A DNA stretch of 64,000 bases from SAR202 cluster bacterium (GCA_022447855.1 JAKUTX010000005.1:4467-68466), one strand, 5' to 3'. Shown: positions 9,427 to 59,972, counted from the first letter of the stretch. The notes: generated by a model not told the origin, from the sequence alone. Numbers and translations: made by a program.

Positions 9427-10566
9427 TTGCACATGGCTATTAAAAAGAATTCTAATTCAAAGTCGTTGGTTGTGGTTCAGTTAGCTGGTGGAAATGATGC
9501 TCTCAATACTATTATCCCCTATACGGATTCAAGATATTTTGATAATAGGCGTAATGTAGCCTTGTCCCAAGAAAGTGTGATCAAGCTTAATGATGAGCTT
9601 GGCATGCGGCCTGGAATGGATACGTTTAAGAAATTTTGGGATTCTGGGCAATTAGCAATTATTAATGGGATTGGCTATCCAAACCCAAACAGGTCACATT
9701 TTCGCTCAATGGATATTTGGTATACAGCTGATAATGAAAATTTAGGGCAAGAGGGATGGTTAGGAAAGACGATTCGTGACCTTGACCCTTATGCGGAGAA
9801 TGTTCTTACAGGAGTGAATTTTGGTCGATCTCTCCCCAGAGCAATGTATGCCAAAGATGTTCCGGTTTCTTCTGTTGGAAATTTAGATACGTATGGATTA
9901 TTTCCTGACATGGAGTCAGAGCTGGATCGAGAGAATACGGTGAATGCATTTTCTAGGATGTATGGTGGTAGAGGGAAAGATCTGATCAAAGATTTTATTT
10001 CACAAACTGGAGTGAACGCACTAAAAGGTGCAGATGTTATTCGAAGTGTTTCTGGCAAATATTCGAGTCCTATTGAGTATTCCTCAAGTGCAATTGCTCA
10101 GCAATTACAATCTATTTCAAAGGTTATATGTGCTGATATTGGTACTCGAATTTACTATACTACCTATGGTGGTTTTGACACTCATTCTGGGTTAGTTGAC
10201 ACACATAGCAAGCTTTGGAATGGTCTCTCCTCAGCTATAGGGGATTTTATGGATGATCTTCAATTTCATGATAAGCATGAAGATATAATGGTTCTTATTT
10301 GGTCCGAGTTTGGTAGACGAGTAGCAGATAATGGTGCTGGTTCAGACCATGGTGCTGGAGGAGTAGGCTTTCTTTTGGGATCTGCTGTAGACGGTGGGTT
10401 TTATGGGGAATATCCATCATTGGAGCCCAAATATTTAGATGAAGGGGATTTGAAGTTTAATAATGATTTTCGAGGAACGTACTCTTCGATTTTGGAACAA
10501 TGGTTTGAATTGGATCCAGTTTCGATTGTAGGTGGAAATTACGAGCAATTTTCTATAGTTAAATAA
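9427..10566 (+). CDS. DUF1501 family protein (sulfatase/alkaline-phosphatase-like fold), leaderless
   Basis: 379 aa. Clear paralogue of 27203..28363, sharing blocks QL(A/S)GGND, GxGYP(N/S)PNRSHFRSMDIW(Y/H)TA, GWLGKTIR(D/E)LDP, SEFGRR and DHG. No Tat or Sec leader. The start could be TTG 9427 or ATG 9433. Confidence 0.8.
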   Translation: MHMAIKKNSNSKSLVVVQLAGGNDALNTIIPYTDSRYFDNRRNVALSQESVIKLNDELGMRPGMDTFKKFWDSGQLAIINGIGYPNPNRSHFRSMDIWYTADNENLGQEGWLGKTIRDLDPYAENVLTGVNFGRSLPRAMYAKDVPVSSVGNLDTYGLFPDMESELDRENTVNAFSRMYGGRGKDLIKDFISQTGVNALKGADVIRSVSGKYSSPIEYSSSAIAQQLQSISKVICADIGTRIYYTTYGGFDTHSGLVDTHSKLWNGLSSAIGDFMDDLQFHDKHEDIMVLIWSEFGRRVADNGAGSDHGAGGVGFLLGSAVDGGFYGEYPSLEPKYLDEGDLKFNNDFRGTYSSILEQWFELDPVSIVGGNYEQFSIVK

Positions 10567-13659: not shown

Positions 13660-14760
13660 ATGAAAATTACTGATATATCCGTCCATAGAGTTTCAATTTC
13701 TCAGAATTCTAATACTCGATTGCTACTTCAAGTACATACTGATGAAGGTGTGACTGGCATTTCGGAGGCTGGCAGAAATTTGCTTGTTACGCGTGCTTAC
13801 CTTGAGGAGTTGATTAAACCACTCTTGCGTGGAGAGGATCCGTGTCGTCCCAAAAGGATTTGGGAGTTGTTATCTTTGGGTGATTCCGACAAGGCTACGC
13901 GTTTTCCTTCTGCAATAGTTGGAGCTATAGATGTTGCTTTGTGGGATATTACAGCCAAATCTGCTGGGCTTCCGTTGTATTCTTTTTTGGGTGGAGCTTC
14001 ACGTATTGAAATCCCATTATACTGGAGTATAGGTAGCGGATGGAGAAAGTCACCTGAACAAATGTTAGATGATGTTCAGCAAGGTTTTGATAAAGGCTAT
14101 AGAGCATTTAAAGTACGTATGGATTGGCGTGACTATCGACAAGATTCTAATCCGATTCAAGATTTTGCTATTTTTCAAAAATGTAGAGAATGGCTTCCCG
14201 ATGATTGCCCGCTTAGTTTTGACGCAAATTGTGGGTATTCTGTTCCAACTGCAATTGAGCAGGGCCGTCGTCTAGAGGAATTAGGTGTAGCTCATTTTGA
14301 GGAGCCTTTACCTCAATATGACTATCCGGGCTTAAAACAAGTTGTTGATGCCTTAGATTGCGCTGTTTCTACGGGAGAGAATGATATTTCTTCATGGAGA
14401 TTTCGAGATTTAATTACTTTGGGGAATCCAGATATTCTTCAGCCTGATATTTTAAATGTAGGTGGGTTGTCAGAGATGATGAGAGTCTATGAACTCGCAG
14501 TTGTTCATAACAAAATTGTGATGCCTCATAGCCCAAGTGTGGGAGCTAATTCAATGGCCAGTTTGCATTTGTATTCCACAATAAAAAATGCTGTAAGGCC
14601 GCATGAATTTTCTGAAGAATTTACTGGACCTGCTGAAGAAGTATCACAATTATTCATTGATCCAGTTTTACCACATAATGGCAAAATCACTTTGCCAGAT
14701 CGTCCAGGTTTAGGTTTAGAGATTGATCCAGTAGAATTAAAGAAGCGTATTTTAGAATAA
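13660..14760 (+). CDS. enolase-superfamily enzyme (mandelate racemase/muconate lactonizing enzyme family) 1
   Basis: 366 aa. N-terminal capping-domain block AIDVALWDITAKSAGLPLYSFLGG. Barrel blocks FDAN.., HFEEP.. and STGEN fit the three metal-ligand strands. Confidence 0.85.
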   Translation: MKITDISVHRVSISQNSNTRLLLQVHTDEGVTGISEAGRNLLVTRAYLEELIKPLLRGEDPCRPKRIWELLSLGDSDKATRFPSAIVGAIDVALWDITAKSAGLPLYSFLGGASRIEIPLYWSIGSGWRKSPEQMLDDVQQGFDKGYRAFKVRMDWRDYRQDSNPIQDFAIFQKCREWLPDDCPLSFDANCGYSVPTAIEQGRRLEELGVAHFEEPLPQYDYPGLKQVVDALDCAVSTGENDISSWRFRDLITLGNPDILQPDILNVGGLSEMMRVYELAVVHNKIVMPHSPSVGANSMASLHLYSTIKNAVRPHEFSEEFTGPAEEVSQLFIDPVLPHNGKITLPDRPGLGLEIDPVELKKRILE

Positions 14761-16602: not shown

Positions 16603-18192
16603 ATGGATAGACGTCCGAACATCCTTTTTGCATTTGCTGATGATTGGGGAAGATATGCGAGTATATACCGTTCATTTCAGGCAGAAAATTCTCTTAATAA
16701 TCTAATTGACACACCTAATTTTGACAGAATTGCGACTGAAGGAGCATTGTTTTTGAATGCTTATGTGCCAGCACCAAGTTGTACTCCTTGCAGGAGTTCT
16801 ATTTTGTCTGGAAGCTACTTTTGGGAGACTGGACTTGGAGCAATTTTAAGAGGAGCAGTCTGGGATGAAGAAATTCCAACATATCCATTAATTTTAGAAG
16901 AAAACGGATATCACATTGGTTACACATATAAGGTTTGGTCTCCAGGAAAAGCAATTAATGCTCCATATGGAGGAGAAAGAACGAGATATGAAGCATTCGG
17001 CAGTGATTTTAATCAGTTTTCGCATGTGGTGACTGAGATTTCTAAGAATATGGGCATTGATGAAGCTAAAAAGATTCTATTTGACGAAACCGTTGAAAAT
17101 TTTAAGAGTTTTTTGTCAGACCGACCCAATGGAAATCCATTTTGTTATTGGTGGGGTCCCACGAATACTCACCGTACCTGGGAGAGAGGTTCAGGTAAGC
17201 ATCTTTGGGGAATAGATCCTGATAGCTTGACAGGTAGATTGCCGGAATTCCTACCTGATGTACATGAAATTAGAGAGGACGTAGCCGATTATTTAGGAGA
17301 ATGCCTTGCTTTTGACGCTGGGCTTGGAAAGATTATAGAAACTTTAGAAGAATCTGGTGAATTAGATAACACTTTAATTGTGATTAGTGGTGATCATGGT
17401 ATTCCTGGTATTCCTAGGGCAAAATGTAATCTTTATGATATTGGTACTGAGGTAGCACTTGCCGTCAGATGGCCTGAAAAAATTCGTCCTGGAAGAGTAG
17501 TAGATGATTTTGTAAATCTTATGGACTTAGCTCCGACGTTTTTGGAAGTTGCCGATGTGCAACCTCCTACGTCGATGAGTGCTAAAAGTTTAATGAATGT
17601 ACTAATTAGTAATCAAAGTGTTGGTCAGATAGATTCCGATCGAGATTGGGTTGTTACTGGTCGTGAAAGACATGTAGAAAATGCTAGATCTGGAGGGTTG
17701 CCATATCCTATGAGGGCAATAAGGACTAAAGATTTCTTATATATACGTAATTTCAAACCAGATCGTTGGCCTATGGGAGACCCTAAAGGATTAGATGATT
17801 TAACGGTAGATGCCCCTAAGTGGGAAGAAATTTCAACTGATACTCGTTGTGCTTATGGAGATTTGGATGCTAGTCCTACTAAGGCCTGGATGATTCATAA
17901 TCGAGCTGATCGCCATGTAACCGATTCTTTCGAACTTGCTTTTGGGAAAAGATCTTTGGAAGAACTTTATGATGTCCAGAACGACCCTGATCTTATGATT
18001 AATTTGGCAGAAGATTCTGCATTCAATGATATTAGGGTAGAGCTTGCTTCAAAATTGGATGAAATTTTAATTAAAAATAATGATCCACGTCTCTGTGAAA
18101 CCAATTGTAGATTTGAAAACGCTCCTTTTGCGGGTCCATTAAGTGACCATTATATTTCGCTTCGCGATTCCACTAATTATTTTGGAGCTTAA
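16603..18192 (+). CDS. Cys-type sulfatase (arylsulfatase family), leaderless
   Basis: 529 aa. N-terminal metal-binding block ILFAFADDWG, formylglycine motif C-x-P-x-R (SCTPCRSSILSG) and SGDHG block. No signal peptide. Confidence 0.85.
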   Translation: MDRRPNILFAFADDWGRYASIYRSFQAENSLNNLIDTPNFDRIATEGALFLNAYVPAPSCTPCRSSILSGSYFWETGLGAILRGAVWDEEIPTYPLILEENGYHIGYTYKVWSPGKAINAPYGGERTRYEAFGSDFNQFSHVVTEISKNMGIDEAKKILFDETVENFKSFLSDRPNGNPFCYWWGPTNTHRTWERGSGKHLWGIDPDSLTGRLPEFLPDVHEIREDVADYLGECLAFDAGLGKIIETLEESGELDNTLIVISGDHGIPGIPRAKCNLYDIGTEVALAVRWPEKIRPGRVVDDFVNLMDLAPTFLEVADVQPPTSMSAKSLMNVLISNQSVGQIDSDRDWVVTGRERHVENARSGGLPYPMRAIRTKDFLYIRNFKPDRWPMGDPKGLDDLTVDAPKWEEISTDTRCAYGDLDASPTKAWMIHNRADRHVTDSFELAFGKRSLEELYDVQNDPDLMINLAEDSAFNDIRVELASKLDEILIKNNDPRLCETNCRFENAPFAGPLSDHYISLRDSTNYFGA

Positions 18193-19726: not shown

Positions 19727-20872
19727 ATGAAAATAGAAAAAATTGAAACACATTTGGTTCGGGATTTATTTCTTGTTGAAATAATTACAGATAATGGCAT
19801 TAGGGGTTTGGGTCAATCAGCTTGCTGGGGATTCCCTGAAGCAGTAAGTGCTATTGTGAAAAAAATGATTCCACTTTTGGTTGGTCAAGATCCTACTAAT
19901 ACCGAACACATTAGCCAATTACTTTATCGATCGGCTCCTTTCAAAGGTTCTGTGTTGTCAGGAGCTTTGTCGGCGATTGATATAGCACTTTGGGATATTA
20001 AGGCAAAGAAGTTTCAAATTCCAGTATGGGAATTATTGGGCGGGAAGGTTCGTGACAAAGTGAGACTTCATTTATTGCTAGGTGGTTGGGATAATCAATT
20101 GCCAAAAGAAGAGGGGATTTTTGGGGCTGCTAAAAAAGCTGTCGCACAAGGATTTACAGCTTTAAAAATCGATCCACTTCCAGACAATTATTTTGATCTT
20201 TCATTGGAAAAACTTGTTAAACAAACTAGGGAATATGTTGGTGCTTTGAGGGAAGGCGCAGGTGATGAAGTTGATATTATTTTAGAAATCCATCGTAAAT
20301 TAACACCGATGGTTGCCATTCACTTGGCTGAAAATCTAAAGGAATTCAATCCTATGTTTTATGAAGATCCAATTCAAATTGACAGTATTATTTCACAGGG
20401 TGAAATAGCCCAGAAAGTTTCTATACCTGTAGCAAATGGAGAAAGGATGCATTCTATTTGGGAATTCCGAGAACTTTTAACTCACGGAGGTCCTCAATAT
20501 GTTAGGCCCGATGTAGGATTGGCTGGCGGATTAACCCATACAAAGAAAATTGCAGCAATCGCTGAATCTTTTCATTCTGCTGTTGTTACTCATAATTTCC
20601 TAGGTCCCATTTTAACTGCAGCATCTGTACATCTTGATGTTACTATTCCCAATTTCATTACTCAGGAATATACATTGGCTGATGAATCTGAGAAACATGA
20701 TTTTGTTAATTCTACTCTTAAGCGAGAAGGTGGGTATATCCTTCTTCCAGACGAGATTGGTTTAGGTGTAGAAATTGACCAAGAAAAAATTTCTAAAACC
20801 CCTTATTCTCCCCGTGAATTGCAAGATGCAGTTCCTTTTCGGAATGATGGGTCTGTCGCTTTTTCTGTTTAA
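19727..20872 (+). CDS. enolase-superfamily enzyme 2 (acid-sugar dehydratase-like)
   Basis: 381 aa. AIDIALWDIKAKKFQIPVWELLGG, barrel blocks ILEIHRK, FYEDP and ANGER. The start abuts the stop of the upstream epimerase gene (TAAATG). Confidence 0.85.
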   Translation: MKIEKIETHLVRDLFLVEIITDNGIRGLGQSACWGFPEAVSAIVKKMIPLLVGQDPTNTEHISQLLYRSAPFKGSVLSGALSAIDIALWDIKAKKFQIPVWELLGGKVRDKVRLHLLLGGWDNQLPKEEGIFGAAKKAVAQGFTALKIDPLPDNYFDLSLEKLVKQTREYVGALREGAGDEVDIILEIHRKLTPMVAIHLAENLKEFNPMFYEDPIQIDSIISQGEIAQKVSIPVANGERMHSIWEFRELLTHGGPQYVRPDVGLAGGLTHTKKIAAIAESFHSAVVTHNFLGPILTAASVHLDVTIPNFITQEYTLADESEKHDFVNSTLKREGGYILLPDEIGLGVEIDQEKISKTPYSPRELQDAVPFRNDGSVAFSV

Positions 20873-20891: not shown

Positions 20892-22010
20892 TTGAAAATT
20901 ATATCTGTTGAATCTGCAACTTGCGTTGTTCCATTGGATTCAGGTGTTGCTTTTGCGACTAGGTCCGTTCAGGAGCGACATTATACGTTGGTTAGAATCC
21001 GTTCAGATTCTGGAATTGAGGGGATAGGATTTTCATATACTGGTCATAAGGCAGGTGGTGTGACAACGATGGCAATAAGAGAATTGTTGTCGGATGTTGT
21101 TATTGGACGTGATCCTCATCAGATAGAATCAATTTGGGATGAAATGTACAAGGAATCTATTTTGCACGGACGCAGAGGGTCGGTTTTGAGAGGAATCAGT
21201 GCAATTGATATAGCTTTATGGGATTTAATTTCAAAAGATGCAGGGCTTCCACTATATAAGATGTTAGGAGCATTTCATGAAGAAATTGTTCCAGCATATG
21301 CTAGTGGTGGATATTATCAACCAAATAAGACTCCAGAAGATTTAGCGAATGAGATGCGAAGTTATTTAGATTTGGGACTTAGGGCTGTTAAAATTAAAGT
21401 AGGTAGAGTTTCCACCTCTGAGGATGTTACTAGGATAGGATTTGCACGAGAGGCAGTAGGGAACTCAGTCCCTTTATTTTTGGATGCAAATAATGCTTGG
21501 AGTGATGCAAGTTCAGCAATTCAGGCCTGTAGGGAATTTGAGGTTCATTCACCTGATTGGATTGAAGAACCATTAATGCCGGATGATATTTTAGGTCATG
21601 CAAAAATTGCTCAGGCAATAAATATACCTGTTGCTACGGGAGAAATTCATCAAACAAGATGGGATTTTGAACAGATTTTAGATAATAATGCTGCAGATAT
21701 TTTACAATCAGATGCAGGTGTTTGCGGAGGCATAACTGAATGGAGGAAGATTGCATCAATGGCAGCAGGACGTGATGTAATTGTTGCTCCTCACTGGTTA
21801 GCTGATATACATGTTCACTTAGTTGCCAGTACTCCTAATGCATCTTGGGTTGAGTTCTTTACGGATCATTCAGTTCTAAATATTGGTAGATTGTTTTCGA
21901 CATCGCTAGAGATCAAAGATGGAGGCTTAAAAATTCCTCAGAGTCCTGGGATAGGTGTGGATTTTGATGATGAAGCAGTGCAAAAATTTTCTTTAGATGG
22001 TTGGCTATAA
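20892..22010 (+). CDS. enolase-superfamily enzyme 3 (mandelate racemase family)
   Basis: 372 aa. AIDIALWDLISKDAGLPLYKMLG, LDANNAW, WIEEP and ATGE blocks. TTG start with an AGGAG RBS. Confidence 0.85.
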   Translation: MKIISVESATCVVPLDSGVAFATRSVQERHYTLVRIRSDSGIEGIGFSYTGHKAGGVTTMAIRELLSDVVIGRDPHQIESIWDEMYKESILHGRRGSVLRGISAIDIALWDLISKDAGLPLYKMLGAFHEEIVPAYASGGYYQPNKTPEDLANEMRSYLDLGLRAVKIKVGRVSTSEDVTRIGFAREAVGNSVPLFLDANNAWSDASSAIQACREFEVHSPDWIEEPLMPDDILGHAKIAQAINIPVATGEIHQTRWDFEQILDNNAADILQSDAGVCGGITEWRKIASMAAGRDVIVAPHWLADIHVHLVASTPNASWVEFFTDHSVLNIGRLFSTSLEIKDGGLKIPQSPGIGVDFDDEAVQKFSLDGWL

Positions 22011-25789: not shown

Positions 25790-27163
25790 ATGGCATTATT
25801 AGAGCAAAGAACAAGTATTGCACAAGTTGCGCATTTACTTAGGAGGGCGGCATTTGGAGAACCAGCTTCCAAATTGGAGAGCAGGTTGTCAGAGTCATAT
25901 GAATCAATTGTTGAAGATCTGATAAATGTTGGCAATTATCCTAGGCTTGAGGAAGATCTTTTAGAAAGACATAATTTACAACACGCTGATGAAGAAGTTC
26001 GTTATTGGACTAGAGCTAGATGGATATATCGGATGATTAATTCACCTAGGCCTCTTGAAGAAAAAGTTGCATTGATGTGGCATGGGGTTTTTGCTACTGG
26101 AGATTCAAAAGTCACAAATAATCCAATGATGAGGACCCATTATGAGATGCTTCGGGATAAAGGACTTGGGAATTTTCAGGATCTACTTGTCGCATTGGCA
26201 AAAGATCCTGCAATGATCTTTTGGTTGGATAACCAAATGAATCATGCCGACGCTCCGAATGAAAATTTTGGTAGAGAATTGCTTGAGTTATTTAGCATGG
26301 GCATTGGCAATTATAGTGAAGAAGATGTTAAAGAGTGCGCTAGAGCATTCACAGGATGGACGAAATCGCAAACAATTCCTAGATATCCTAATGGGTTTTA
26401 TGATAGTCAGTTTATATTTAGATCAGAAGATCATGATTCTGGAATGAAAACTTTTTTGGGTGAAACTGGCCCATTTGATGGTGAAGATATTATAGATATC
26501 ATTGTGAAGCAACCAGCTACAGCAAAATTTGTTGCGTCTGAAATCTATTCTTTTTTTGTTTCTGATGATCCCGTTGAAGAACATGTTGAATTAATTGCTG
26601 AGGTTTTTGTAAATTCGAACTATATGATCTCGGAAGTTTTGCGCTACGTTTTCAATACCGATTTTTTTAAAAATGCAATATTTAAGAAAGTTAAGAGTCC
26701 TCCTGAAATTGTAGTCGGAACGGCAATACTTTCTGGAAGACATCAGACACCATACGAATTTGGACTTTCTAGGATGGCAGATGCTACAAAGAATATGGGT
26801 CAAGACTTGTTAAATCCTCCTACTGTAGAAGGATGGCATACTGGTAGAGAATGGATTGATTCGTCATACTTAATAGAACGAGTGAATTTTTCAGCTCAGA
26901 TGATATCCGATATTTCTGCTCCAGGAACAGAAGCAATAATTAATAGGATCGCTTCTAAAAAATCTAAGTTTCTTGCTAGGGAATTATTAGATGAGTGCTT
27001 GTATGAAATGGGATCAATTCATCTTAAGCCTCGATCTATTGAAGTGTTATTTGATGAATTAGACATACCAGATTTTATAGATACTGAATCCAAAGAATTC
27101 TTAGAAATTGTATCGGGGATGCTTAGGTTAATTGTATCTTCCAGAGAGTATCAATTTGCGTAA
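25790..27163 (+). CDS. DUF1800 family protein, leaderless
   Basis: 457 aa. N-terminal AHLLRRAAFG block, HWHGVFAT-like (MWHGVFAT) and ENFGRELLELFSMGIGNYSEEDV blocks as I recall for DUF1800. Immediately precedes a DUF1501 gene, the usual pairing. Confidence 0.8.
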   Translation: MALLEQRTSIAQVAHLLRRAAFGEPASKLESRLSESYESIVEDLINVGNYPRLEEDLLERHNLQHADEEVRYWTRARWIYRMINSPRPLEEKVALMWHGVFATGDSKVTNNPMMRTHYEMLRDKGLGNFQDLLVALAKDPAMIFWLDNQMNHADAPNENFGRELLELFSMGIGNYSEEDVKECARAFTGWTKSQTIPRYPNGFYDSQFIFRSEDHDSGMKTFLGETGPFDGEDIIDIIVKQPATAKFVASEIYSFFVSDDPVEEHVELIAEVFVNSNYMISEVLRYVFNTDFFKNAIFKKVKSPPEIVVGTAILSGRHQTPYEFGLSRMADATKNMGQDLLNPPTVEGWHTGREWIDSSYLIERVNFSAQMISDISAPGTEAIINRIASKKSKFLARELLDECLYEMGSIHLKPRSIEVLFDELDIPDFIDTESKEFLEIVSGMLRLIVSSREYQFA

Positions 27164-27202
27164 TGTTTTTGATTTTGAATTTGTAAATTCTGAGGAGAAA
27201 AG

Positions 27203-28363
27203 ATGGTTGAACAATTAAATGAAACATTAGACTCTGGAAAACCACCCGTATTTGTTGTAATTCAACTTTCTGGTGGGAATGATTTTATGAGTACAGTAAT
27301 TCCGTTTAGGGATTCCCATTATTTTGAGTTTCGTAAGACTGTTGGTATTTCTGAAGAAGATGCACTGCATATTGATCAAGGATTTGCCTTTCATCCTGCT
27401 ATGGGAGCTATTAAACGACTTTGGGATGAAGGTAAGGTAGCGCTTTTCCCAGGATCGGGATATCCTTCTCCCAACAGATCACATTTTAGATCGATGGACA
27501 TTTGGCATACCGCTAATCCAGAAACTTTAAGTTCCGATGGTTGGTTAGGGAAAACGATAAGAGAACTTGATCCACAAAAAGAAAATGTTGTTACAGGGGT
27601 AAGCTTTGGTTCAGGACTCCCAAGGGCAATGTATTTGTCAGGGACTCCTGCAATATCTGTGACTGAATTAGAGGGATATGGGTTGTTGACTGATCTTGCA
27701 GGAAAGAAACAACGCCAGGCAGTAAAAGCTTTTACCAGGATGTATGCCCCAGAAGAATTTGAAGAAGCTAGCGTAGTATGGGACCATTTAGGACAAACAG
27801 GTATTGATGCTCTTAATGGAGCAGATATGCTTAGCACTGCTCCTCCTATTTATAAATCTAGTATTGAATATGCTGAGGATTCACTTTCTCAAAGTCTTAA
27901 AGGTATAGCTCAAGTTCATCTTTCTGGCATAGGTACAAGAGTGTTTTATGCTCAATTAGGTGGTTTTGATGTTCATGGAGCTCAGATTCAAACGCAACAA
28001 AAATTACTGTCTTCTGTATCTAGAGCAGTAGGTGATTTTATTGATGATCTTAGAGAACATGAGGCTTCAAATGAGGTTGTGGTAATGATTTTTTCAGAAT
28101 TTGGTCGCCGAATTCGAGATAATGGAAATGGTACAGATCATGGTTCTGGGGGAGGCACTTTTTTGATTGGCGATAGAGTAAAGGGTGGTTTCTATGATAA
28201 TTATCCTTCTTTAGCTCCAAAAGACCAACTTGATGGAGATATGCATTTTACTCATGATTTTAGGTCAGTATATGCAACAGTTTTAGAACAATGGATTGGA
28301 ATCAATTCTAATCCAATATTAGATAGCAAGTTTGATCAATTTGAGGGTGTATTTTCTCGTTAG
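27203..28363 (+). CDS. DUF1501 family protein, leaderless
   Basis: 386 aa. QLSGGND, GSGYPSPNRSHFRSMDIWHTA, SEFGRR and GTDHG blocks. The mature-domain motif begins at residue ~16, so there is no Tat/Sec leader. Confidence 0.85.
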   Translation: MVEQLNETLDSGKPPVFVVIQLSGGNDFMSTVIPFRDSHYFEFRKTVGISEEDALHIDQGFAFHPAMGAIKRLWDEGKVALFPGSGYPSPNRSHFRSMDIWHTANPETLSSDGWLGKTIRELDPQKENVVTGVSFGSGLPRAMYLSGTPAISVTELEGYGLLTDLAGKKQRQAVKAFTRMYAPEEFEEASVVWDHLGQTGIDALNGADMLSTAPPIYKSSIEYAEDSLSQSLKGIAQVHLSGIGTRVFYAQLGGFDVHGAQIQTQQKLLSSVSRAVGDFIDDLREHEASNEVVVMIFSEFGRRIRDNGNGTDHGSGGGTFLIGDRVKGGFYDNYPSLAPKDQLDGDMHFTHDFRSVYATVLEQWIGINSNPILDSKFDQFEGVFSR

Positions 28364-31712: not shown

Positions 31713-33302
31713 ATGCCAGAAAATTTTGACCCTCAGGAAAGTACCCTGATTGGGCGTTATTTCACCAATTTAGATAAAGATATATTTTGTTTAGTTAATT
31801 TGCCTGAAGTTGTTAAAGGTACATTGTTTTCAAGATATAGTCGTACAGAGAAAACTCTTCGAAGGGTTCTTTTGGATGAGTTTATTAATGCTCCGGAAAT
31901 GGAATTTGACGAAATTGTAGGATCTCCAAATCAAAATCAATCGGATCCTTTATTGGCAATAGAAAAGGCTGAACGCTTTTATGATCGAGTATTGGTAGGT
32001 TATGGTGATGATTCTGTGGCAGAATTAGCCGGGGTACATATTGCTTGTGAGAACATTTCGAGTTTGGCAGCCGATTATCTAACTAATCCCAGAATAGGTA
32101 TTTCCCCACTCGAAAAATCTGCTAGATATGTAATGTTTGATGAGAAGGTTGATGGAGATTATTTGTACTATAAAGACCCATCAATTATGGCTTCAAAGTA
32201 TTCCCAGAATTTTATTGATTCAATGCGTAATTTATTTGAATCTTATAGATCTTGGATCTATGAGGCTATGGATTATGTTCGCGAAGTATCGCCACAAGAT
32301 TCTGATACTTCTGATCGTGCTTATGCAAGTGCTGTTCGAGCAAAAGGCTGTGATATAGTTAAAAATATTTTACCTGCATCGAGGTTGACTAATGTTGGTT
32401 TGTTTGGCAATGGTCGAGCGTATGAATATTTGATTAGCTCTTTGTATTCTACTGAACTTTCTGAGACACAGGAGATTGGTAATGCAATGCACAATGAGAT
32501 GCGGAAAGTTATTCCTAGTTTTGTAAAAAGGTCTCAAAGGAATGAATATTTGGTACATCGTAGGAGTCCTGTGCAAAATGCCAAATTAGCATCACCACAA
32601 GGATTATCCAAAGAGAATTCAGTAACATTGGTGGATTTTGATGATGATGCAGAAAAAATTGTTGCATCTGCGATTTTATATCCACATGCCCAAACAAATA
32701 TGGGAGAAATAAAGACTTTAATTGATTCTGAATCGTCAGAATATATAGAAAATGTAATTAAAGAATATGTAAATAATCGATCATCTCGCAGAGATAGGCC
32801 CGGTAGACCTTTTGAGAACGTTTTTTACACATTTGAATTTTTAAGTAGTTACGGTGTATATAGAGATTTTCATAGGCACAGACAACTAACTCAAGAAGCT
32901 CAAATTTTAACCCCTGATCTTGGTTATGATATTCCTATAGAAGTAGAGGATATGGGCTTAGAAGATGAATGGAATAGTCGAATGGATGAGGCTGCAGAAG
33001 TGGCTAAGAAAATTGCTGATAGTGGATTGCTATTAGAGTCGCAATATGCGCTCCCCAGGCAATTTAAAGTTCGATGGTATATGAAAATGAATTTGAGAGA
33101 AATTTTCCATATGGTTGAGTTGAGGTCTGGTCCACAAGGGCATCCAGACTATCGCAAAATTGCTCAATCAATTTATCATGAAGTACAAAAAGTACATCCA
33201 GTTTTAGCATCAGGGATTTCGTTTGTTGATTTAAATGAATATGCTCTTCCAAGACTTGACGCTGAAAAAAGATTGGATGTTAAAAGAGCCAGATTAAAAT
33301 AA
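31713..33302 (+). CDS. thyX: flavin-dependent thymidylate synthase ThyX family, double-length form
   Basis: 529 aa, about twice the usual ThyX length. ThyX-like signature FHRHRQLTQ at 32871..32894 in the C-terminal half. The N-terminal half (GTLFSRYSRTEKTLRRV) looks like a degenerate copy. Confidence 0.65.
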   Translation: MPENFDPQESTLIGRYFTNLDKDIFCLVNLPEVVKGTLFSRYSRTEKTLRRVLLDEFINAPEMEFDEIVGSPNQNQSDPLLAIEKAERFYDRVLVGYGDDSVAELAGVHIACENISSLAADYLTNPRIGISPLEKSARYVMFDEKVDGDYLYYKDPSIMASKYSQNFIDSMRNLFESYRSWIYEAMDYVREVSPQDSDTSDRAYASAVRAKGCDIVKNILPASRLTNVGLFGNGRAYEYLISSLYSTELSETQEIGNAMHNEMRKVIPSFVKRSQRNEYLVHRRSPVQNAKLASPQGLSKENSVTLVDFDDDAEKIVASAILYPHAQTNMGEIKTLIDSESSEYIENVIKEYVNNRSSRRDRPGRPFENVFYTFEFLSSYGVYRDFHRHRQLTQEAQILTPDLGYDIPIEVEDMGLEDEWNSRMDEAAEVAKKIADSGLLLESQYALPRQFKVRWYMKMNLREIFHMVELRSGPQGHPDYRKIAQSIYHEVQKVHPVLASGISFVDLNEYALPRLDAEKRLDVKRARLK

Positions 33303-36971: not shown

Positions 36972-38030
36972 TTAGGAATGGACTATAATTAATGGGGAAT
37001 TGTTATTTTCTTTATTTGAAACTTTACCAATAACAATTGGATCTGGACAGTCTCTTTTCTTCATTTCTTCTAAGAGAAGCGGCAAATTTTTTTCTGAAAT
37101 TGATATTAAAAGTCCACCGGATGTTTGAGCGTCACTAAGTAACAATTTTTCGTCTTCTTTTACGTGTTTGTCCCAATCAACAGTAGATGAAATTGAATCT
37201 AAATTACGAAATGTGCCACCGGGAAGAATTTTCTTTTTAATTAAATCCCATACACCCTGTATTACAGGTATTTTATTGACTTCAATGGTTGCTGTTTTGT
37301 TGCTTGCTTCCATCATTGATTTTAAATGTCCTAGTAACCCGAATCCTGTAATGTCAGTGCAAGCATTTGCTCCAGCAGAGACCATAGATAAGGATGCATT
37401 TTGATTTAGGGCTTTCATATGTGATGTCGCCAAGTTAAGCGTTTCCAGATCATCTAACGCTGATTGTTTTGCTGCTGTTGTAATGATACCAGTCCCTAAA
37501 GGTTTGGTTAAAACTAATAGGTCTCCATCCTTTGCATTTGCATTAGATATTTGCTCTCCTGGTTTAACAATGCCCAAAATTGCTAATCCATATTTTGGTT
37601 CTGCGTCATCGACCGTATGTCCCCCAGAAATTATGGCTCCAGCTTCTTGGATTTTGTTGGCTCCCCCTTTTAGGATGCTAGTTAAGATTTCTTTTGGTAA
37701 ATCAATAGGAAATCCAACAATGTTAAGGGCCAAAATTGGTTTTCCTCCCATTGCATATATGTCACTTAAAGCGTTAGATGCAGCAATTTCGCCGAAAGTG
37801 TATGGATCATCAACTATTGGGGGAAAAAAATCTACTGTAAATATTAATGCAGTATCGTCAGAAATTTTGTACACAGCTGCATCATCTTTTGTGTCAGATC
37901 CAATTAGAAGGTCTGGATGAGACATGATGGGTAGCTGACTCAGTACCTGAGCCAGGTCTTCAGGACTAAATTTTGAGGCTCAGCCTGCGCAACTTGCAAG
38001 TTCAGTCAAACGAACTGAATCAGAATTCAT
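36972..38030 (-). CDS. selD: selenide, water dikinase (selenophosphate synthetase), Sec-containing form with in-frame UGA at codon 17
   Basis: The track ORF (36972..37925) starts at MSHPDLL and lacks the catalytic N-terminus. Upstream in frame: ATG 38030..38028 (GGAG 6 nt upstream) gives MNSDSVRLTELASCAG-U-ASKFSPEDLAQVLSQLPI. TGA at 37982..37980 aligns with E. coli SelD Cys17, and Lys20 is conserved. The body has PurM-like blocks (DDAAVY). Confidence 0.9.
37935..37955 (-). promoter_or_regulatory. candidate bacterial SECIS hairpin within selD
   Basis: mRNA CUGGCUCAG-GUA-CUGAGUCAG: 9-bp stem with one G:U and a GUA apical loop. Begins 24 nt after the UGA. Confidence 0.5.
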
Positions 38031-38278
38031 CTGAATCTCCTAGTGTTTGGTAGTTCAAGTATATTTCAAATAAATGCTATTTGAAACTGATTTGGTTCAG
38101 AATATTTTTAAAAACAATCTCTGTTTGATATTAAATCCATTCTAAATGTGTGGACGCAATTTCCTTGCAAAAAACAGTCTCATATGAAATTTTGGCAAGT
38201 GTCCAATTTATTTTTATTATATGAAAAAATGCTATTGTTAAGTAGAAAATGTAGAATGCATTCAGCATAGGAGAAAAT

Positions 38279-44248: not shown

Positions 44249-45603
44249 CCTTTTTCCCGATTGATATTTTGGTCTTTCGAATCATCTTGATTCCAAAGAC
44301 TTTGCAATCTTTTTGTTATTTCTTTTTCGTATCCGTAGGATGTGGGTTTGTAAAATTGAGTTCCTTGAAGGTTTTTTGGAAGGTTTTGCATTGGATGGAA
44401 GGCATCATCATAGTTGTGAGAATACTTGTAATCTTTTCCATATCCTATATCTTTCATTAACCCTGTCACAGCGTTTCTTAAATGCATTGGTACAGGTTCG
44501 CCAGATGTATTGTGGGCAGAATCTAATGCATTGTTAATAGCTGAATATGCGCTGTTACTTTTTGGTGCGGCTGCTAAATAGATTGTTGCTTCAGCTAATG
44601 GGATTCTGCACTCAGGCATTCCTATGAAATGTACTGCTTGCTGAGCTGCCATGGCAATGGATAAAGCTTGTGGATCTGCGAGACCAATGTCTTCTGCTGC
44701 TAAAATGACAATTCTCCTTGCGATAAACATTAAATCTTCCCCTGCATCAAGCATCCTTGCAAGCCAATAAATTGCTGCATCAGGGTCAGATCCTCGCACA
44801 GATTTAATGAACGCTGAGATCGTGTTGTAGTGATGTTCTCCAGATTTATCGTATGCTGCGGATTTGTGCTGTATAACTTGGTTAATGGTTTCATCATCTA
44901 TGACACATTCCCCATTCTGGTTAGGCTCAGTTACTGAAACTGCAATTTCTAAAACATTTAGAGCTGTTCTAGCATCACCATTTGTGATTTCTATGATCTT
45001 CTCCATCGCTTCATTTGTTAGACTTGCGTTATGCGAGCCTAATCCCTTTTTTGGATCTTTTACTGCATGATTAATTATTTTCGCAATTGATTGATTAGTT
45101 AATGGATTAAGAATGTATATTTGAGTTCTAGATAACAAAGGTGGAACTATCTCAAAAGACGGATTTTCAGTAGTCGCTCCCACCAGAATGAAAGTCCCAT
45201 TTTCAACAAATGGAAGTGCGACATCTTGCTGCGATTTGTTGAGTCTATGGATTTCATCGACAAACAAAATTGTGCGTTTTTGGTACATACCTAACCTGTT
45301 TTTTGATTCAGAAGCGATGTTTCTGATTTCAGCAACACCACTGGTTACTGCGCTAATTCTTTCAAAATGACTCTTTGTGGTTTCAGCTATGATTTGTGCT
45401 AGTGTGGTTTTCCCAGACCCAGGGGGGCCCCATAGAATGAAACTTGGGATTGAATCAGCTTCTATACTTCTTCTTAGAATGGCGTTGTTTGATGTTAGAT
45501 GTTCCTGTCCAAAATATTCCTCAAAAGATCTTGGCCTCATTCTGTCAGCTAATGGTGAGGAATTATGTCTTTCTTTCTCACTGGAATGTTCAAATAGATT
45601 CAT
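44245..45603 (-). CDS. rarA: replication-associated recombination protein A (MgsA/RarA AAA+ ATPase)
   Basis: 452 aa. Walker A WGPPGSGKTTLA, Walker B LFVDEIHR, and a MgsA C-terminal domain (YDKSGEHHYN..SAFIKSVRGSDPDAA). Confidence 0.9.
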   Translation of the reverse strand: MNLFEHSSEKERHNSSPLADRMRPRSFEEYFGQEHLTSNNAILRRSIEADSIPSFILWGPPGSGKTTLAQIIAETTKSHFERISAVTSGVAEIRNIASESKNRLGMYQKRTILFVDEIHRLNKSQQDVALPFVENGTFILVGATTENPSFEIVPPLLSRTQIYILNPLTNQSIAKIINHAVKDPKKGLGSHNASLTNEAMEKIIEITNGDARTALNVLEIAVSVTEPNQNGECVIDDETINQVIQHKSAAYDKSGEHHYNTISAFIKSVRGSDPDAAIYWLARMLDAGEDLMFIARRIVILAAEDIGLADPQALSIAMAAQQAVHFIGMPECRIPLAEATIYLAAAPKSNSAYSAINNALDSAHNTSGEPVPMHLRNAVTGLMKDIGYGKDYKYSHNYDDAFHPMQNLPKNLQGTQFYKPTSYGYEKEITKRLQSLWNQDDSKDQNINREKG

Positions 45604-46999
45604 TGTTTTTTTGTGAAGCTTTTAAAGCGTATGAAATGGATTGTAAAAGAATTTCATCTTGATTGACGAAAACTGTACGTGGATCAAAAAGTATGTGTTC
45701 ATTTTCAATTTTACCGATTACGGGAGTGGGAGCATTTCGTAGATGTTGTGATAGTGAATTTGCTCCTCCATTAATCGATTTGCAATTGATTCGAAGAGAC
45801 TTTGACTGGATTGTTTCTCCTGGTAAACTTCCTCCTCCTATTGTAGAAAATGAATCTGTTACTGTGGCAATTTCTCCTATTTCTTTTGCCAGGTAATATG
45901 CTCTCTTTTCAATTTTTTCTAATGGCATTGAAATCATCTTCCAGATAGGAATTTTTTCTTCAACCTCTCCGTTAACATAGTGTAATAAAGTTGAATGAAG
46001 TGCTGCTAGGGTAATTTTGTCAACTCTTAGAGCCCTTGTGAGGGGATGTTTTTTAATCTTAGAAATGAAATTGTTGGTTCCTGATATAATTCCACATTGC
46101 GGTCCACCAAGTAATTTGTCACCAGAAAAGCAGGTGATTGGAATACCTGATTCAACAGAATCTTGGGGGGTGGGCTCTTTAGAGAGTCCGTATTTTGATG
46201 TGTCTAGAATACATCCGCTGCCCAAATCTTGAATTACAGGCAAATCATATTTCTCACCCAAAGTAGAAATCTCTTCTGGCGTAGGATTGGAAGTGAACCC
46301 TATAACTTTAAAATTGCTTAAATGGACAGTAAGAATTGCACCAGTATTCTCATTTATTGCCTCTTCATAATCCGAAATGTATGTCCGATTTGTAGTTCCT
46401 ACTTCAACTAATTTCGCCCCGCTTTGGTTAAGTACATCGGGGATCCTAAATCCTCCACCAATTTCTACTGATTCACTTCTAGAGATAATAACTTCTTTTC
46501 CGAAAGCAATGCTAGCTAGTGATAGCATTAAGGCACTGGCGTTGTTATTAACAACTAGAGATTGATCAGCACCAACAAGTAAATTGAATATTTCCGATAT
46601 TTTGTTATATCTATCACCTCTGGCACCAGTTTCGAGATCGATTTCTAAAGCATTATAATTTTGTAAAACACTTTTCACTGAAACCTGTGCTTCTTCACTC
46701 AAAGGAGACCTTCCAAGATTTGTATGGATTATTACTCCTGTACCATTGATTACTTCTGGAGGCCATGTATCCTTTCTAATACGATTTAACTCACTTAGTA
46801 ATCTTTTCTGAATTTTTTCATATGTTAGAGGTTCTTTACCTGAGGAGATTATCTTTCTGGCTGAATTGATAGTTTTTCTTGCGACCTCTAGAGTCACTTC
46901 TTTTGGTAATGTTTTTGTTTTTACTAATACTTGTGGGTCTGAAAGCAACCGTTCCACAGAAGGTAATTCCCTGTATGGGTTTGATAGGTCTTTGCTCAA
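45590..46999 (-). CDS. selA: L-seryl-tRNA(Sec) selenium transferase
   Basis: 469 aa. N-terminal LPSVERLL block and PLP-lysine block FSGDKLLGGPQCGII, near-identical to the E. coli SelA motif. Its 3' end overlaps the rarA start by 14 nt. Confidence 0.9.
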   Translation of the reverse strand: MSKDLSNPYRELPSVERLLSDPQVLVKTKTLPKEVTLEVARKTINSARKIISSGKEPLTYEKIQKRLLSELNRIRKDTWPPEVINGTGVIIHTNLGRSPLSEEAQVSVKSVLQNYNALEIDLETGARGDRYNKISEIFNLLVGADQSLVVNNNASALMLSLASIAFGKEVIISRSESVEIGGGFRIPDVLNQSGAKLVEVGTTNRTYISDYEEAINENTGAILTVHLSNFKVIGFTSNPTPEEISTLGEKYDLPVIQDLGSGCILDTSKYGLSKEPTPQDSVESGIPITCFSGDKLLGGPQCGIISGTNNFISKIKKHPLTRALRVDKITLAALHSTLLHYVNGEVEEKIPIWKMISMPLEKIEKRAYYLAKEIGEIATVTDSFSTIGGGSLPGETIQSKSLRINCKSINGGANSLSQHLRNAPTPVIGKIENEHILFDPRTVFVNQDEILLQSISYALKASQKNNESI

Positions 47000-56523: not shown

Positions 56524-57708
56524 TTGGATTCAACAACGGCAATATATTTAGATCATGCGGCCACCACTCCAGTTAGGAAAGAAGTGCTAGATGAGATGAT
56601 GCCTTATTTTTCTACTTTTTTTGGCAATCCATCAGGGATTTATTCTCTTTCACAGTTATCAAGAGCTGCTTTGGATGATTCAAGAGAAATTGTTGCAAAT
56701 GTTTTGGGTTGTTCTGCTAAAGAAGTTGTATTTACGAGTGGTGGAACAGAGTCAGATAATATGGCAATTAAAGGGGTAGCGTTAGGATTAAAACAATTTG
56801 GGAATCACATCATAACAAGTAATATTGAGCATCATGCAGTTTTACACACTTGCAAGCAGTTAGAAAATATGGGATTTGATATTACATATCTTCCAGTTGA
56901 TGAATATGGGCTATTACATTTGGATCAAGTCCGTGAGGCAATGAATGAAAGAACAATTTTGGTCAGTGTAATGCTGGCGAATAACGAAATTGGTTCTATT
57001 ATGCCTATAAAGGAAATTTCAGAAGTTGTTAAAAGTAGGTCTTCAGAATTGGGAATAAGGACATTTCTTCATACGGATGCTGTGCAAGGTGCAGGTTACT
57101 TGGATATAAATACTGATGAACTTGGAGTGGATTTAATGAGTTTGTCAGGTCATAAGATTTATGGCCCAAAAGGTGTCGGGGTTTTATTTATGAAGCAGAA
57201 TACTCCGTTTGAAAATTTGATTAATGGAGGAGGTCAGGAGAAAGATAGAAGATCTGGAACCGAAAATGTTCCCGGAATAATAGGGATGTCTAAAGCATTA
57301 GAATTGGTTCAGGATGAAAGAGAGCAACTTAGTGCAAATGCTGTGAAATTGCGGGATCGTGTTATATCTGGAATATTTGATTCTTTAAGTGACGTATACT
57401 TAAATGGTCATCCTACATTGAGACTTCCTAACAATGCTAATTTTTCGTTTAAGAATATTGAAGGTGAACCTATTTTGCTGGGACTGGATTTTGATAATAT
57501 TTGTGTGTCAAGTGGTAGTGCATGCTCTACTTCATCTTTACAACCTTCACATGTGCTTACTGCAATTGGAAGATCACATGATCTCGCGAGAAGTAGTTTG
57601 CGAATAAGTTTTGGAAAAGATAATTCAATCGAGGACGTAGATAAGTTATTATCTAGTTTAATAAAATTGATTAATAGACTTCGATCGAATTCAAATTTCA
57701 TTAAATAA
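56524..57708 (+). CDS. class-I cysteine desulfurase (NifS/IscS-like)
   Basis: 394 aa. PLP-lysine block [12 protein letters not shown] and active-site Cys loop [10 protein letters not shown] start with an AAGGTGA RBS. No IscU/NifU gene adjacent. Confidence 0.9.
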
Positions 57709-57723
57709 TAGCGGAGAGTATAA

Positions 57724-58320
57724 ATGATTGGTATAAATCCTGGGTGGTTGTCCGTTCGGAAAGATTTATTTTTGTTGTTGGCAAGTTCAATCCTGATATT
57801 TTCTATGTTTGGATGTTCTTATATTCCTCTATTAAATAATACGGAAGACGCTCCACCTGAAGAAGGCTATTGGCCTGGTAAAGTTTTGGAGATGTATACA
57901 GGTTTGATGGAGGTAACTCCAAGCATTGCATTTCGTGATGAAAATGGTGAAACCAGGGTTTTAACTCCTTCATCTTCAAAGAATGCATTGGTTGCTATTA
58001 ATATGACATTTGTTAATAGAAATACTGTTGTTGTGCCAATGTTAGTAAATGAAAATTCAGTTGAAATTGGCAATCCATACGATGAGCGGTTCAGACCAAT
58101 TGATCCTTTTGAGAATGCAATGTATGCAGATGTCCCAGAAGAAGATTTGAGTCATATTAAGCCATTTTTATGGGGTTCTATGGATTTAGTAAGAGATTTT
58201 CAAATAGAAGGATATTTGATTTTTGAAATTCCGCAAGGTATGCCAATAACAACTCTATGGTGGGAAGAGGTTGATAGTATCGTTGCTTTGCTTTACTTGA
58301 AACCCGATCCCGTGGAGTAA
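57724..58320 (+). CDS. putative lipoprotein (Ig-like, possibly DUF4352-like)
   Basis: 198 aa. Signal peptide with a lipobox-like SMFGC|SY. The family guess is weak. Confidence 0.4.
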   Translation: MIGINPGWLSVRKDLFLLLASSILIFSMFGCSYIPLLNNTEDAPPEEGYWPGKVLEMYTGLMEVTPSIAFRDENGETRVLTPSSSKNALVAINMTFVNRNTVVVPMLVNENSVEIGNPYDERFRPIDPFENAMYADVPEEDLSHIKPFLWGSMDLVRDFQIEGYLIFEIPQGMPITTLWWEEVDSIVALLYLKPDPVE

Positions 58321-58351: not shown

Positions 58352-58449
58352 GGGAGCGGATAGGCTCGGGTGGGTCTCGCGGACTTCAAATCCGTTGTCT
58401 CCTGACCTTCGTTAGGAGAGGTGGGTTCGACTCCCTCCCGTTCCCGCCA
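58352..58449 (+). tRNA. selC: tRNA-Sec (anticodon UCA), CCA encoded
   Basis: 98 nt. 8-bp acceptor stem (GGGAGCGG / CCGTTCCC), 6-bp D stem with a 4-nt loop (AGGCTC-GGGT-GGGTCT), anticodon loop CTTCAAA (UCA), about 9-bp extra arm (TCTCCTGAC-CTTC-GTTAGGAGA), T loop TTCGACT, discriminator G, then CCA. This is the bacterial tRNA-Sec architecture. Confidence 0.9.
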
Positions 58450-58544: not shown

Positions 58545-59972
58545 TTACCTCTTAATTGGTCCTCTTCTAAATGTAACAGCTTTGTTTGAAAAATTGGTAT
58601 ATTCATCAAAATCTTGTTTCTTAAAAACCTCAAGAGTTAAAATGTCATCTAATTGATTTTTTGAATTGGATTTCACTTGGTATTTAACGTATAAAAATTC
58701 ATTATCATTGAAATAATTACTCTTTTTTCCAATTCCAACAGAATCATCTCCCGATACGATGAAAAACTTGTTTTGCCCTACTGGACTATCATTATACAAA
58801 GGCTTTCCAATTAATTTATTCATTTTGCTTTCTATCAATATTCCAGAAATATCAGGGTTTTGATCTAAAATTTCCCAAAATGTTTCTTTACTCAAATCAG
58901 CTGTTTTTGTTAGATGAATGATTGACCACTCAGACCCAAAATTCTGATCGAATGCATCTGTAATATCATCTTTAAACCATGTCCCCCATATCTTTCCGAT
59001 TTCATTAATATTTGGTCGACTATCTTCTAAATTAGTAAAAGGATGTGTTCCCTCATCAACCATTTTTTGATAAACAGGTTGGTATTGAGACAAGATGGAA
59101 TTTTTTAGTTCTTCAGTAAAATAATCTAGTGGATTAGCTCTCACGTTCCACCAATGGGTTTTGTTTTCAGTCAGATCAGCGTCAAAACTTCGATCTTCAA
59201 CACCAAAATCAATTACATGATATTCTTCAGGGCGGTTGTTCGAATTATTTCCATCTATGAAATCCCAATCCGTTTTGATGTAACCTATGTGAGTGCCAGC
59301 CTCCAGGACAATTTCTTCAGTTTCAGATTTTTCAACTAGAGATTTGATTTTGTCCAACAACGCTAGATGCATGAAAAATACTGTGACATCTTCTGATACT
59401 CTCATCCATATTTGAGCGTCAAATAACACTTCTTCTTCATTAATGGTGGATTTGCGATCACTATAGATTCGTATACTTCGTTTGTCTAATATTGATTTCA
59501 CTGGCAAAAAAACCTTTATGGGTTCCTTGGAGCATGTAGCGAGATACCATTTTTTTGGACCTTCAGTATGATTTACAACAAAATGGTTGAAATATGGTTG
59601 TATGGAAGGATAAGTTCTACATACTGAATCCTCAGAAAATAATTTTTCAAAATCTACAGGAGTGTGGGTAAATCCAACAAATTCTTCAAATTCATCCTTT
59701 TGTTTTGATGTGGAATCATTCTCGTCGTCATCATGATCATTCTCGTCGTCATCATGATCATTCTCGTCGTCATCATGATCATTCTCGTCGTCATCATGAT
59801 CATTCTCATCGTTATTGTTACTATCTTTTGCATTATTTTTAGGTTCTTCAGTGATTTTAATTTCTTCAACTTCAACTGGATTTGCAGGGTTTAAAGAATT
59901 GTTGTTTCCGCAAGCAATGAACAAAACCAACATAAATGTAATTAATAGTATCTTTATTTTTGCTAGGGTCAT
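58545..59972 (-). CDS. lipoprotein with N-terminal acidic His/Asp heptad repeats; C-terminal domain unrecognised
   Basis: 475 aa. Lipobox VLFIAC|GNN, then (NDHDDDE)x4 flanked by related sequence. The remaining ~380 aa has no motif I recognise. Confidence 0.6.
   Translation of the reverse strand: MTLAKIKILLITFMLVLFIACGNNNSLNPANPVEVEEIKITEEPKNNAKDSNNNDENDHDDDENDHDDDENDHDDDENDHDDDENDSTSKQKDEFEEFVGFTHTPVDFEKLFSEDSVCRTYPSIQPYFNHFVVNHTEGPKKWYLATCSKEPIKVFLPVKSILDKRSIRIYSDRKSTINEEEVLFDAQIWMRVSEDVTVFFMHLALLDKIKSLVEKSETEEIVLEAGTHIGYIKTDWDFIDGNNSNNRPEEYHVIDFGVEDRSFDADLTENKTHWWNVRANPLDYFTEELKNSILSQYQPVYQKMVDEGTHPFTNLEDSRPNINEIGKIWGTWFKDDITDAFDQNFGSEWSIIHLTKTADLSKETFWEILDQNPDISGILIESKMNKLIGKPLYNDSPVGQNKFFIVSGDDSVGIGKKSNYFNDNEFLYVKYQVKSNSKNQLDDILTLEVFKKQDFDEYTNFSNKAVTFRRGPIKR
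59715..59813 (-). repeat. 21-bp perfect tandem repeat x4 plus a degenerate fifth copy, in-frame within the CDS
   Basis: ATCATTCTCGTCGTCATCATG repeated at 59715, 59736, 59757 and 59778 with no mismatches, then ATCATTCTCATCGTT. Encodes NDHDDDE units on the minus strand. Confidence 0.95.

Follow-up and report, generated by a model that had tools for sequence, protein, structure and literature searches.

A selD gene of a SAR202 cluster bacterium with a probable UGA-encoded selenocysteine in its catalytic loop

The window analysed here, a stretch of 64,000 nucleotides from a SAR202 cluster bacterium (GCA_022447855.1 JAKUTX010000005.1:4467-68466), contains on its minus strand an open reading frame, 36972..37925, that is called as a SelD of 317 aa. 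Does this call cover the whole gene, or does the gene begin further upstream and run through an in-frame UGA that is read as selenocysteine (Sec)? The original prediction, made from the sequence alone, favoured the second possibility and held that the called frame, starting at Met 37925, is deprived of its catalytic N-terminal loop. Minus-strand reading and translation bear out this truncation, as well as the coordinates and sequences that had been given for the upstream part: a GGAG at 38040..38037, an ATG at 38030..38028 and a TGA at 37982..37980, the latter being codon 17, 16 codons past the ATG. The features of the gene are the following.

36972..38030, minus strand: predicted full coding sequence of selD, 352 codons plus stop, Sec at codon 17 (TIGR00476, NF002098, alignment to E. 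coli SelD)
38058..38085, minus strand: promoter-like TTCAAA-16-TATACT, 5' of selD (consensus match only)
38037..38040, minus strand: Shine-Dalgarno-like GGAG, 6 nt 5' of the ATG (sequence, conserved in relatives)
38028..38030, minus strand: ATG, probable true start codon, the first start following the in-frame TAG
37980..37982, minus strand: in-frame UGA, probably read as Sec17, on Cys17 of E. coli SelD and invariant in 78 sequences

The upstream frame joins the called ORF into a SelD of 352 aa. Raw translation across the TGA gives MNSDSVRLTELASCAG-stop-ASKFSPEDLAQVLSQLPIMSHPDLL, continuous with the ORF called from 37925. With the UGA decoded as Sec, the peptide becomes MNSDSVRLTELASCAG-U-ASKFSPEDLAQVLSQLPI, followed by the called ORF from Met 37925, and the extended protein begins with MNSDSVRLTELASCAGU. 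Three codons 5' of the ATG at 38030 lies an in-frame TAG, and this ATG is therefore the earliest possible start. It is also the furthest in-frame start from the Sec codon, at 16 codons, which is the commonest distance among relatives. The GGAG that precedes it is conserved in relatives with 77-84% protein identity, and the promoter-like block at 38058..38085 is conserved in sequence in close relatives; no Shine-Dalgarno sequence was found before 37925.

The identity of the extended protein was assessed by profile scoring with the UGA replaced by Cys. It scores 381.8 bits against the SelD equivalog TIGR00476 (cut-off 125) and 360.8 bits against NF002098 (cut-off 299), and both matches begin at profile position 1-2 only when the N-terminal extension is included, so that the protein of 352 aa aligns to the family as a full-length SelD. 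Of the solved structures, E. coli SelD 3u0o scores highest (255 bits, residues 1-312 aligned). The first 30 residues align to it without a gap, which places U17 on Cys17 and Lys20 on Lys20, exactly as had been claimed. In E. coli SelD, Cys17 binds selenide and a C17S variant is inactive (PMC3956282). A product starting at Met36, the Met of 37925, would be without the residue 17 loop and without Lys20. Furthermore, the motifs DDAAVY, TVDFF, SDIYAMGG and TDITGFG align to E. coli SelD, and the AIRS and AIRS_C domains (PF00586 and PF02769) are recorded for the same protein in other assemblies. Asp residues of the SelD motifs bind metal and ATP. The gene product is a predicted selenide- and ATP-dependent selenophosphate synthetase. 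The window also contains a second gene of the AIRS fold, thiL, encoding thiamine-phosphate kinase (8295..9335, minus strand; TIGR01379, 268 bits). This gene cross-matches the SelD model at only 63 bits and was rejected as a second selD.

The best 120 database homologues are all 312-329 aa long and cover 80-91% of the query; therefore, they are truncated like the called ORF. A locus scan with one genome per species yielded 80 loci, mostly from Dehalococcoidia, SAR202 or Chloroflexota MAGs, at 51-62% identity. In-frame upstream translation finds the TGA in the same column in 77 of these, inside the motif RLT-x-L-[AS]-x-C-A-G-U-A-[SAG]-K. The remaining three, outgroups from Zixibacteria and Eisenbacteria MAGs, have a Cys codon, TGC or TGT, within the motif G-L-G-C-A-C-K. 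With the TGA and a conserved N-terminus kept in 77 of 80 loci, close and distant homologues alike do not start at the equivalent of Met 37925. Relatives have M, V, T, F, I or other residues at this position, and Met 37925 is therefore no conserved start. Across 78 aligned sequences the TGA column is invariant. In the ten codons that precede it, column entropy is 0.63 bits for first, 0.38 for second and 1.45 for third codon positions; variation thus falls mainly on third positions, which argues that the stretch is translated.

A separate observation concerns the Cys at codon 14 (37989..37991, minus strand), which stands three residues before the Sec position, so that the stretch C-A-G-U makes up a C-x-x-U motif. 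Of the 78 Sec-type sequences, 76 share this Cys, the exceptions coming from a Deltaproteobacteria MAG (L070) and a Chloroflexota MAG (L078). The Sec-type sequences are without the Cys that E. coli SelD carries two residues past the active site. The Cys of the C-x-x-U motif could act as a resolving or protective selenenylsulfide partner.

Past the UGA, the mRNA had been proposed to fold into a bacterial SECIS-type hairpin, starting 24 nt past the UGA and made up of a 9-bp stem and a GUA loop. The element, CUGGCUCAG-GUA-CUGAGUCAG, is found as described.

37935..37955, minus strand: SECIS-type hairpin, 9-bp stem 37955..37947 with 37943..37935, apical loop GUA 37946..37944

The hairpin has a folding energy of -11.5 kcal/mol and a distance from UGA to loop of 33 nt. 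For bacterial SECIS elements, PMC13188914 gives a loop of 3-9 nt, a stem of 4-16 bp, a UGA-to-loop distance of 16-37 nt and an energy of -7.5 kcal/mol or lower; within the first two positions of the loop there must be a G, as a rule with G or U after it. The hairpin lies within all of these limits, as applied by a custom script that accepts perfect stems only and is not bSECISearch itself. When the same peptide was recoded synonymously with the window's own codon usage, 0.16% of 5000 draws gave a hairpin as good (-11.5 kcal/mol). Dinucleotide shuffling of the 31-nt hairpin segment gave z = -2.35, with 4 of 200 shuffles as good; for 71 nt around the site the result was not significant (z = -1.23, 24 of 200 folding at least as well). 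The tests against null models are therefore mixed, synonymous recoding being the more appropriate null and the dinucleotide shuffles weaker evidence.

Throughout the window, 2739 TGA trinucleotides occur on both strands, 15 of which are followed by a hairpin passing -7.5 kcal/mol and 5 by one reaching -11.5 kcal/mol, selD being one of the five. The strong SECIS-like hairpins at the TGA sites 29646 (plus strand), 3634/3638 (minus strand) and 44068 (plus strand) were set aside, as these TGAs are out of frame with the overlapping ORFs. A search of 37850..38080 against Rfam at a permissive threshold returned only chance-level matches to unrelated families; we know of no generic bacterial SECIS model in Rfam.

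A hairpin that passes the constraints is present in 72 of the 78 Sec-type sequences (median -11.6 kcal/mol), and the loops of these 72 all begin with G or NG, followed by U or G. None of the three Cys-type outgroups has a passing hairpin (best values -2.1, 0 and -1.4 kcal/mol). The hairpins occur in two registers, 6 nt apart, which are set by the residue at codon 28; in alignment columns numbered from the U of the UGA, they lie within columns 23-48, corresponding to 37960..37935 in the window. With Ala or Ser at codon 28 (32 sequences, the window included), columns 28-36 pair with 40-48 at a spacing of 33 nt, and 96.9% of the cells are paired. With Val or Gly (45 of the other 46, the last one having Met), columns 23-30 pair with 34-41 at a spacing of 27 nt, and 94.3% of the cells are paired. 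The window sequence itself pairs at 9 of 9 positions in the proposed hairpin and at 6 of 8 in the alternative register.

For both registers, the paired percentage and the covariation score over the whole alignment exceed those of all 500 column shuffles and of the slid controls, with the caveats that the sequences are related and coding and that the split by codon 28 is partly dependent on the structure. Compensatory combinations are seen at pair 33-43 (G-C 28, U-A 11, A-U 2) and pair 32-44 (C-G 32, U-G 18, U-A 10) as well as at pair 30-34 (G-C 63, C-G 6) and pair 27-37 (C-G 72, U-A 4). RNAalifold finds no consensus structure on all 78 sequences, because two mutually exclusive registers coexist. 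Given the Ala/Ser sequences and two further close relatives, it recovers the window hairpin de novo, with compensatory pairs 31-45, 33-43 and 36-40; on the Ala/Ser subset it also gives a 3-bp helix, columns 17-19 with 25-27. In the relatives with 77-84% identity, the window hairpin is nucleotide-identical save for the third loop base, and the flanking codons change. In the window's register, a base pair links the third position of codon 28, where this encodes Ala, to the first position of codon 32, in the combinations GCU-AGY (Ser), GCG-CGN (Arg) and GCA-UGC (Cys). Therefore, the RNA structure constrains the protein sequence at residue 32.

Decoding of the UGA as Sec also calls for a dedicated machinery, and two of its components are encoded in the window.

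45590..46999, minus strand: selA, L-seryl-tRNA(Sec) selenium transferase (TIGR00474 equivalog, 527 bits against a cut-off of 268; PF03841 in other assemblies)
58352..58449, plus strand: selC, tRNA-Sec with anticodon UCA (ARAGORN; Rfam RF01852, 68.3 bits against a gathering score of 47)

Together with selD these genes lie within about 21 kb, scattered among unrelated genes and not in an operon. NCBIfam and Pfam scans found no selB among 41 ORFs of the window (every ORF of at least 300 aa and several shorter ones), nor in the flanks on longer contigs of the same organism, which extend 10 kb to the left and about 7.8 kb to the right, up to the contig end. In a genome with selA, selC and a UGA-type selD, selB is expected.

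The surroundings of the tRNA-Sec gene have some further features. On its 5' side, 56524..57708 (plus strand) encodes a NifS/IscS-type cysteine desulfurase (TIGR03402, 491 bits, below the cut-off of 531) with weak similarity to the selenocysteine lyase SclA; it is a candidate for delivering selenium to SelD or for serving it as a Sec lyase. Alongside it and directly 5' of the tRNA gene is a 198-aa ORF without an assigned family (57724..58320, plus strand). The adjoining 475-aa ORF at 58545..59972 (minus strand) has no NCBIfam or Pfam match. The ORF beside the tRNA gene is called as 318 and 496 aa in other assemblies (L092 11150..12106; L093 10503..11993), and these differing lengths suggest a variable region. 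Elsewhere in the window, a 529-aa ORF (31713..33302, plus strand) matches the ThyX model, of about 211 positions, only at residues 443-499, although other assemblies list it with Pfam Thy1. ThyX is much shorter than 529 aa, and this ORF may be a fused or duplicated form. The window further contains three enolase-superfamily sugar-acid dehydratase paralogues, DUF1800/DUF1501 genes and one sulfatase-like gene, a content typical of SAR202-type marine Chloroflexota and in agreement with the taxonomic signal of SelD.

13660..14760, 19727..20872, 20892..22010; 25790..28363; 9427..10566; 16603..18192, plus strand: enolase-superfamily paralogues, DUF1800/DUF1501 genes and sulfatase-like gene

A crude scan of the six frames and the intergenic gaps of the window gave no convincing UGA-interrupted gene besides selD; the other matches were wrong frames over real genes or had implausible, short leaders. 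Some Dehalococcoidia MAGs encode 46-49 selenoproteins, which places them among the richest known (PMC13326102). The warning, part of the original prediction, that other UGA-containing genes of this genome will be mis-called is reasonable, because the Dehalococcoidia are among the selenoprotein-richest bacteria.

Beside its frame and its homology, the locus thus has a conserved UGA with coding sequence on both sides, a conserved and covarying hairpin, and selA and selC in the neighbourhood. In all likelihood, 36972..38030 (minus strand) encodes a full-length SelD in which the catalytic residue 17 of the glycine-rich loop is a UGA-encoded Sec. It could be objected that every gene caller picked 37925 or a nearby start, and that the true product is a truncated protein from Met 37925, or the gene a decaying pseudogene, the upstream frame being an untranslated leader. 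Such a product would miss the catalytic loop with residue 17 and Lys20 (PMC3956282). Moreover, the ten upstream codons have third-position wobble and conserved amino acids in the 78 sequences, and it is the ATG at 38030, not the variable Met 37925, that is preceded by a Shine-Dalgarno-like sequence; we regard a truncated product as extremely improbable. A sequencing or assembly error that created the TGA in an ordinary Cys-type selD can practically be dismissed, since 6 independent metagenome assemblies of the organism agree over all 181 nt of the region, the TGA is found in 77 other loci, and both TGA and hairpin are kept in marine-metagenome relatives at 77-84% protein identity. Finally, the UGA might be read through as another residue, either as Cys or Trp by near-cognate decoding or by reassignment of the codon. 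This would be in line with the failure to find selB in the scanned ORFs and flanks. However, TGA terminates 5 of the 38 long ORFs of the window (TAG 5, TAA 28), and therefore UGA is not reassigned and the code is standard. Furthermore, tRNA-Sec and selA are encoded nearby, the SECIS-type hairpin is conserved in Sec-type homologues and absent in the Cys-type outgroups, and Sec occupies the same position in about a fifth of prokaryotic SelD genes (PMC4561486). Read-through as anything other than Sec is accordingly very unlikely.

A different matter is whether Sec is inserted with the help of another or larger structure than the 9-bp hairpin at 37955..37935, for example the Val/Gly-type register, a small helix near 37966..37956 or a fold that involves the UGA itself. 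The existence of two registers 6 nt apart among relatives and the 3-bp helix reported by RNAalifold for the subset (columns 17-19 with 25-27) would speak for this, as would the minimum-energy fold of a 75-nt segment of the window sequence. In this fold, UGAGCC (37982..37977) pairs with GGCUCA (37953..37948), which belongs to the 5' arm of the hairpin. Extension by hand with C 37983 and G 37947 results in a 7-bp helix, CUGAGCC/GGCUCAG, in competition with the SECIS stem. Most relatives have this helix disrupted; it is not conserved outside the GCU-type sequences and is therefore probably incidental. The alternative register leaves two of its eight pairs unformed in the window, as opposed to nine out of nine formed in the proposed hairpin. 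The latter is moreover preserved to the nucleotide at 77-84% identity despite changing flanks, and the Ala/Ser subset is almost completely paired in its register, with compensatory changes. A functional SECIS other than the 9-bp hairpin is consequently rather unlikely, and the hairpin at 37955..37935 is the preferred candidate.

On the basis of the Sec reading and this hairpin, a sequence of events can be proposed that follows the standard bacterial mechanism. Translation would start at ATG 38030. With the ribosome at the UGA, the hairpin would be positioned just outside the mRNA entry channel, and the 24 nt between UGA and stem base should allow it to stay folded while the UGA is in the A site. 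SelB, carrying GTP and Sec-tRNA(Sec), would presumably bind the apical part of the hairpin. SelA would turn the serine on the selC tRNA into selenocysteine, using selenophosphate from SelD itself. Sec would then be inserted at residue 17 of the selenide-binding loop and translation would go on. The synthesis of SelD would depend on its own product, because SelD makes the selenium donor for charging tRNA-Sec. The autoregulatory dependency that was part of the original prediction is thus a reasonable idea. This circularity is a long-standing notion in the field, which goes back to the first descriptions of Sec-type selD genes.

It could further be imagined that the SelD of this marine, Dehalococcoidia-like lineage is a distinct Sec-type variant, characterized jointly by a lineage-specific C-x-x-U motif, the shifted SECIS registers and a switch between the UGA region and the 5' arm of the hairpin. 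Taken as a whole, such a variant is doubtful. If it existed, the C-x-x-U motif could form a protective selenenylsulfide in oxic seawater, and the identity of residue 32 (Ser, Arg or Cys) would be dictated by RNA pairing with the third base of the Ala28 codon. Pairing of the SECIS 5' arm with the UGA region, in the window's clade, could switch or tune SelD synthesis.

The practical consequences are of a more immediate nature. The catalytic N-terminus of SelD is missing from all public protein calls among the best 120 homologues (312-329 aa). Therefore, the automated annotation of these abundant marine and groundwater Chloroflexota systematically misreports a key enzyme of selenium metabolism. 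The combination of a Sec-type selD, selA and tRNA-Sec marks the genome as Sec-decoding, and other UGA-interrupted genes should thus be sought in it with selenoprotein-aware tools. The biology as such is already established, including the dependence of the Sec pathway on its own product.

How does this gene compare with known systems? Among the selenoprotein families of prokaryotes, only one is more widespread than SelD (PMC13188914). In a reference set of prokaryotic genomes, about 19% of the SelD genes carry a Sec codon, whose position is always the same, and bacterial SECIS elements are recovered by RNAz in the Sec-type genes (PMC4561486). As in the Sec-type SelD of other bacteria, the UGA of the window gene lies in the catalytic N-terminal loop with a Lys three residues on, a hairpin in the coding sequence follows just past the UGA, and expression would depend on selA, selB and selC. 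Examples of the Sec type are found in Haemophilus influenzae and Aquifex aeolicus; the second-best solved-structure match of the window SelD, 2yye (239 bits), is presumably, like 2zod, the Aquifex aeolicus protein. The window SelD differs from these in coming from an uncultured marine bacterium, with its closest relatives in Dehalococcoidia/SAR202 MAGs at about 60% identity, and in its local motif C-A-G-U-A-S-K. It shares the motifs DDAAVY, TxDFF, SDIxAMGG and TDxTGFG with E. coli SelD 3u0o. The E. coli gene has Cys17 where the window gene has UGA, and therefore needs no SECIS. The SECIS of E. coli fdhF contains a bulged U, and the window stem is without it. In comparison with the bSECISearch consensus, as quoted in PMC13188914, the window element conforms in its 3-nt loop beginning with GU, its 9-bp upper stem, its spacing of 33 nt and its energy of -11.5 kcal/mol; it is distinguished by its perfect stem and by a spacing close to the permitted maximum of 37 nt. 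The Sec-type selD described here is thus a correct call and an ordinary one: the arrangement is common, well documented and known to be misannotated, and the lineage is already known for its heavy use of Sec.
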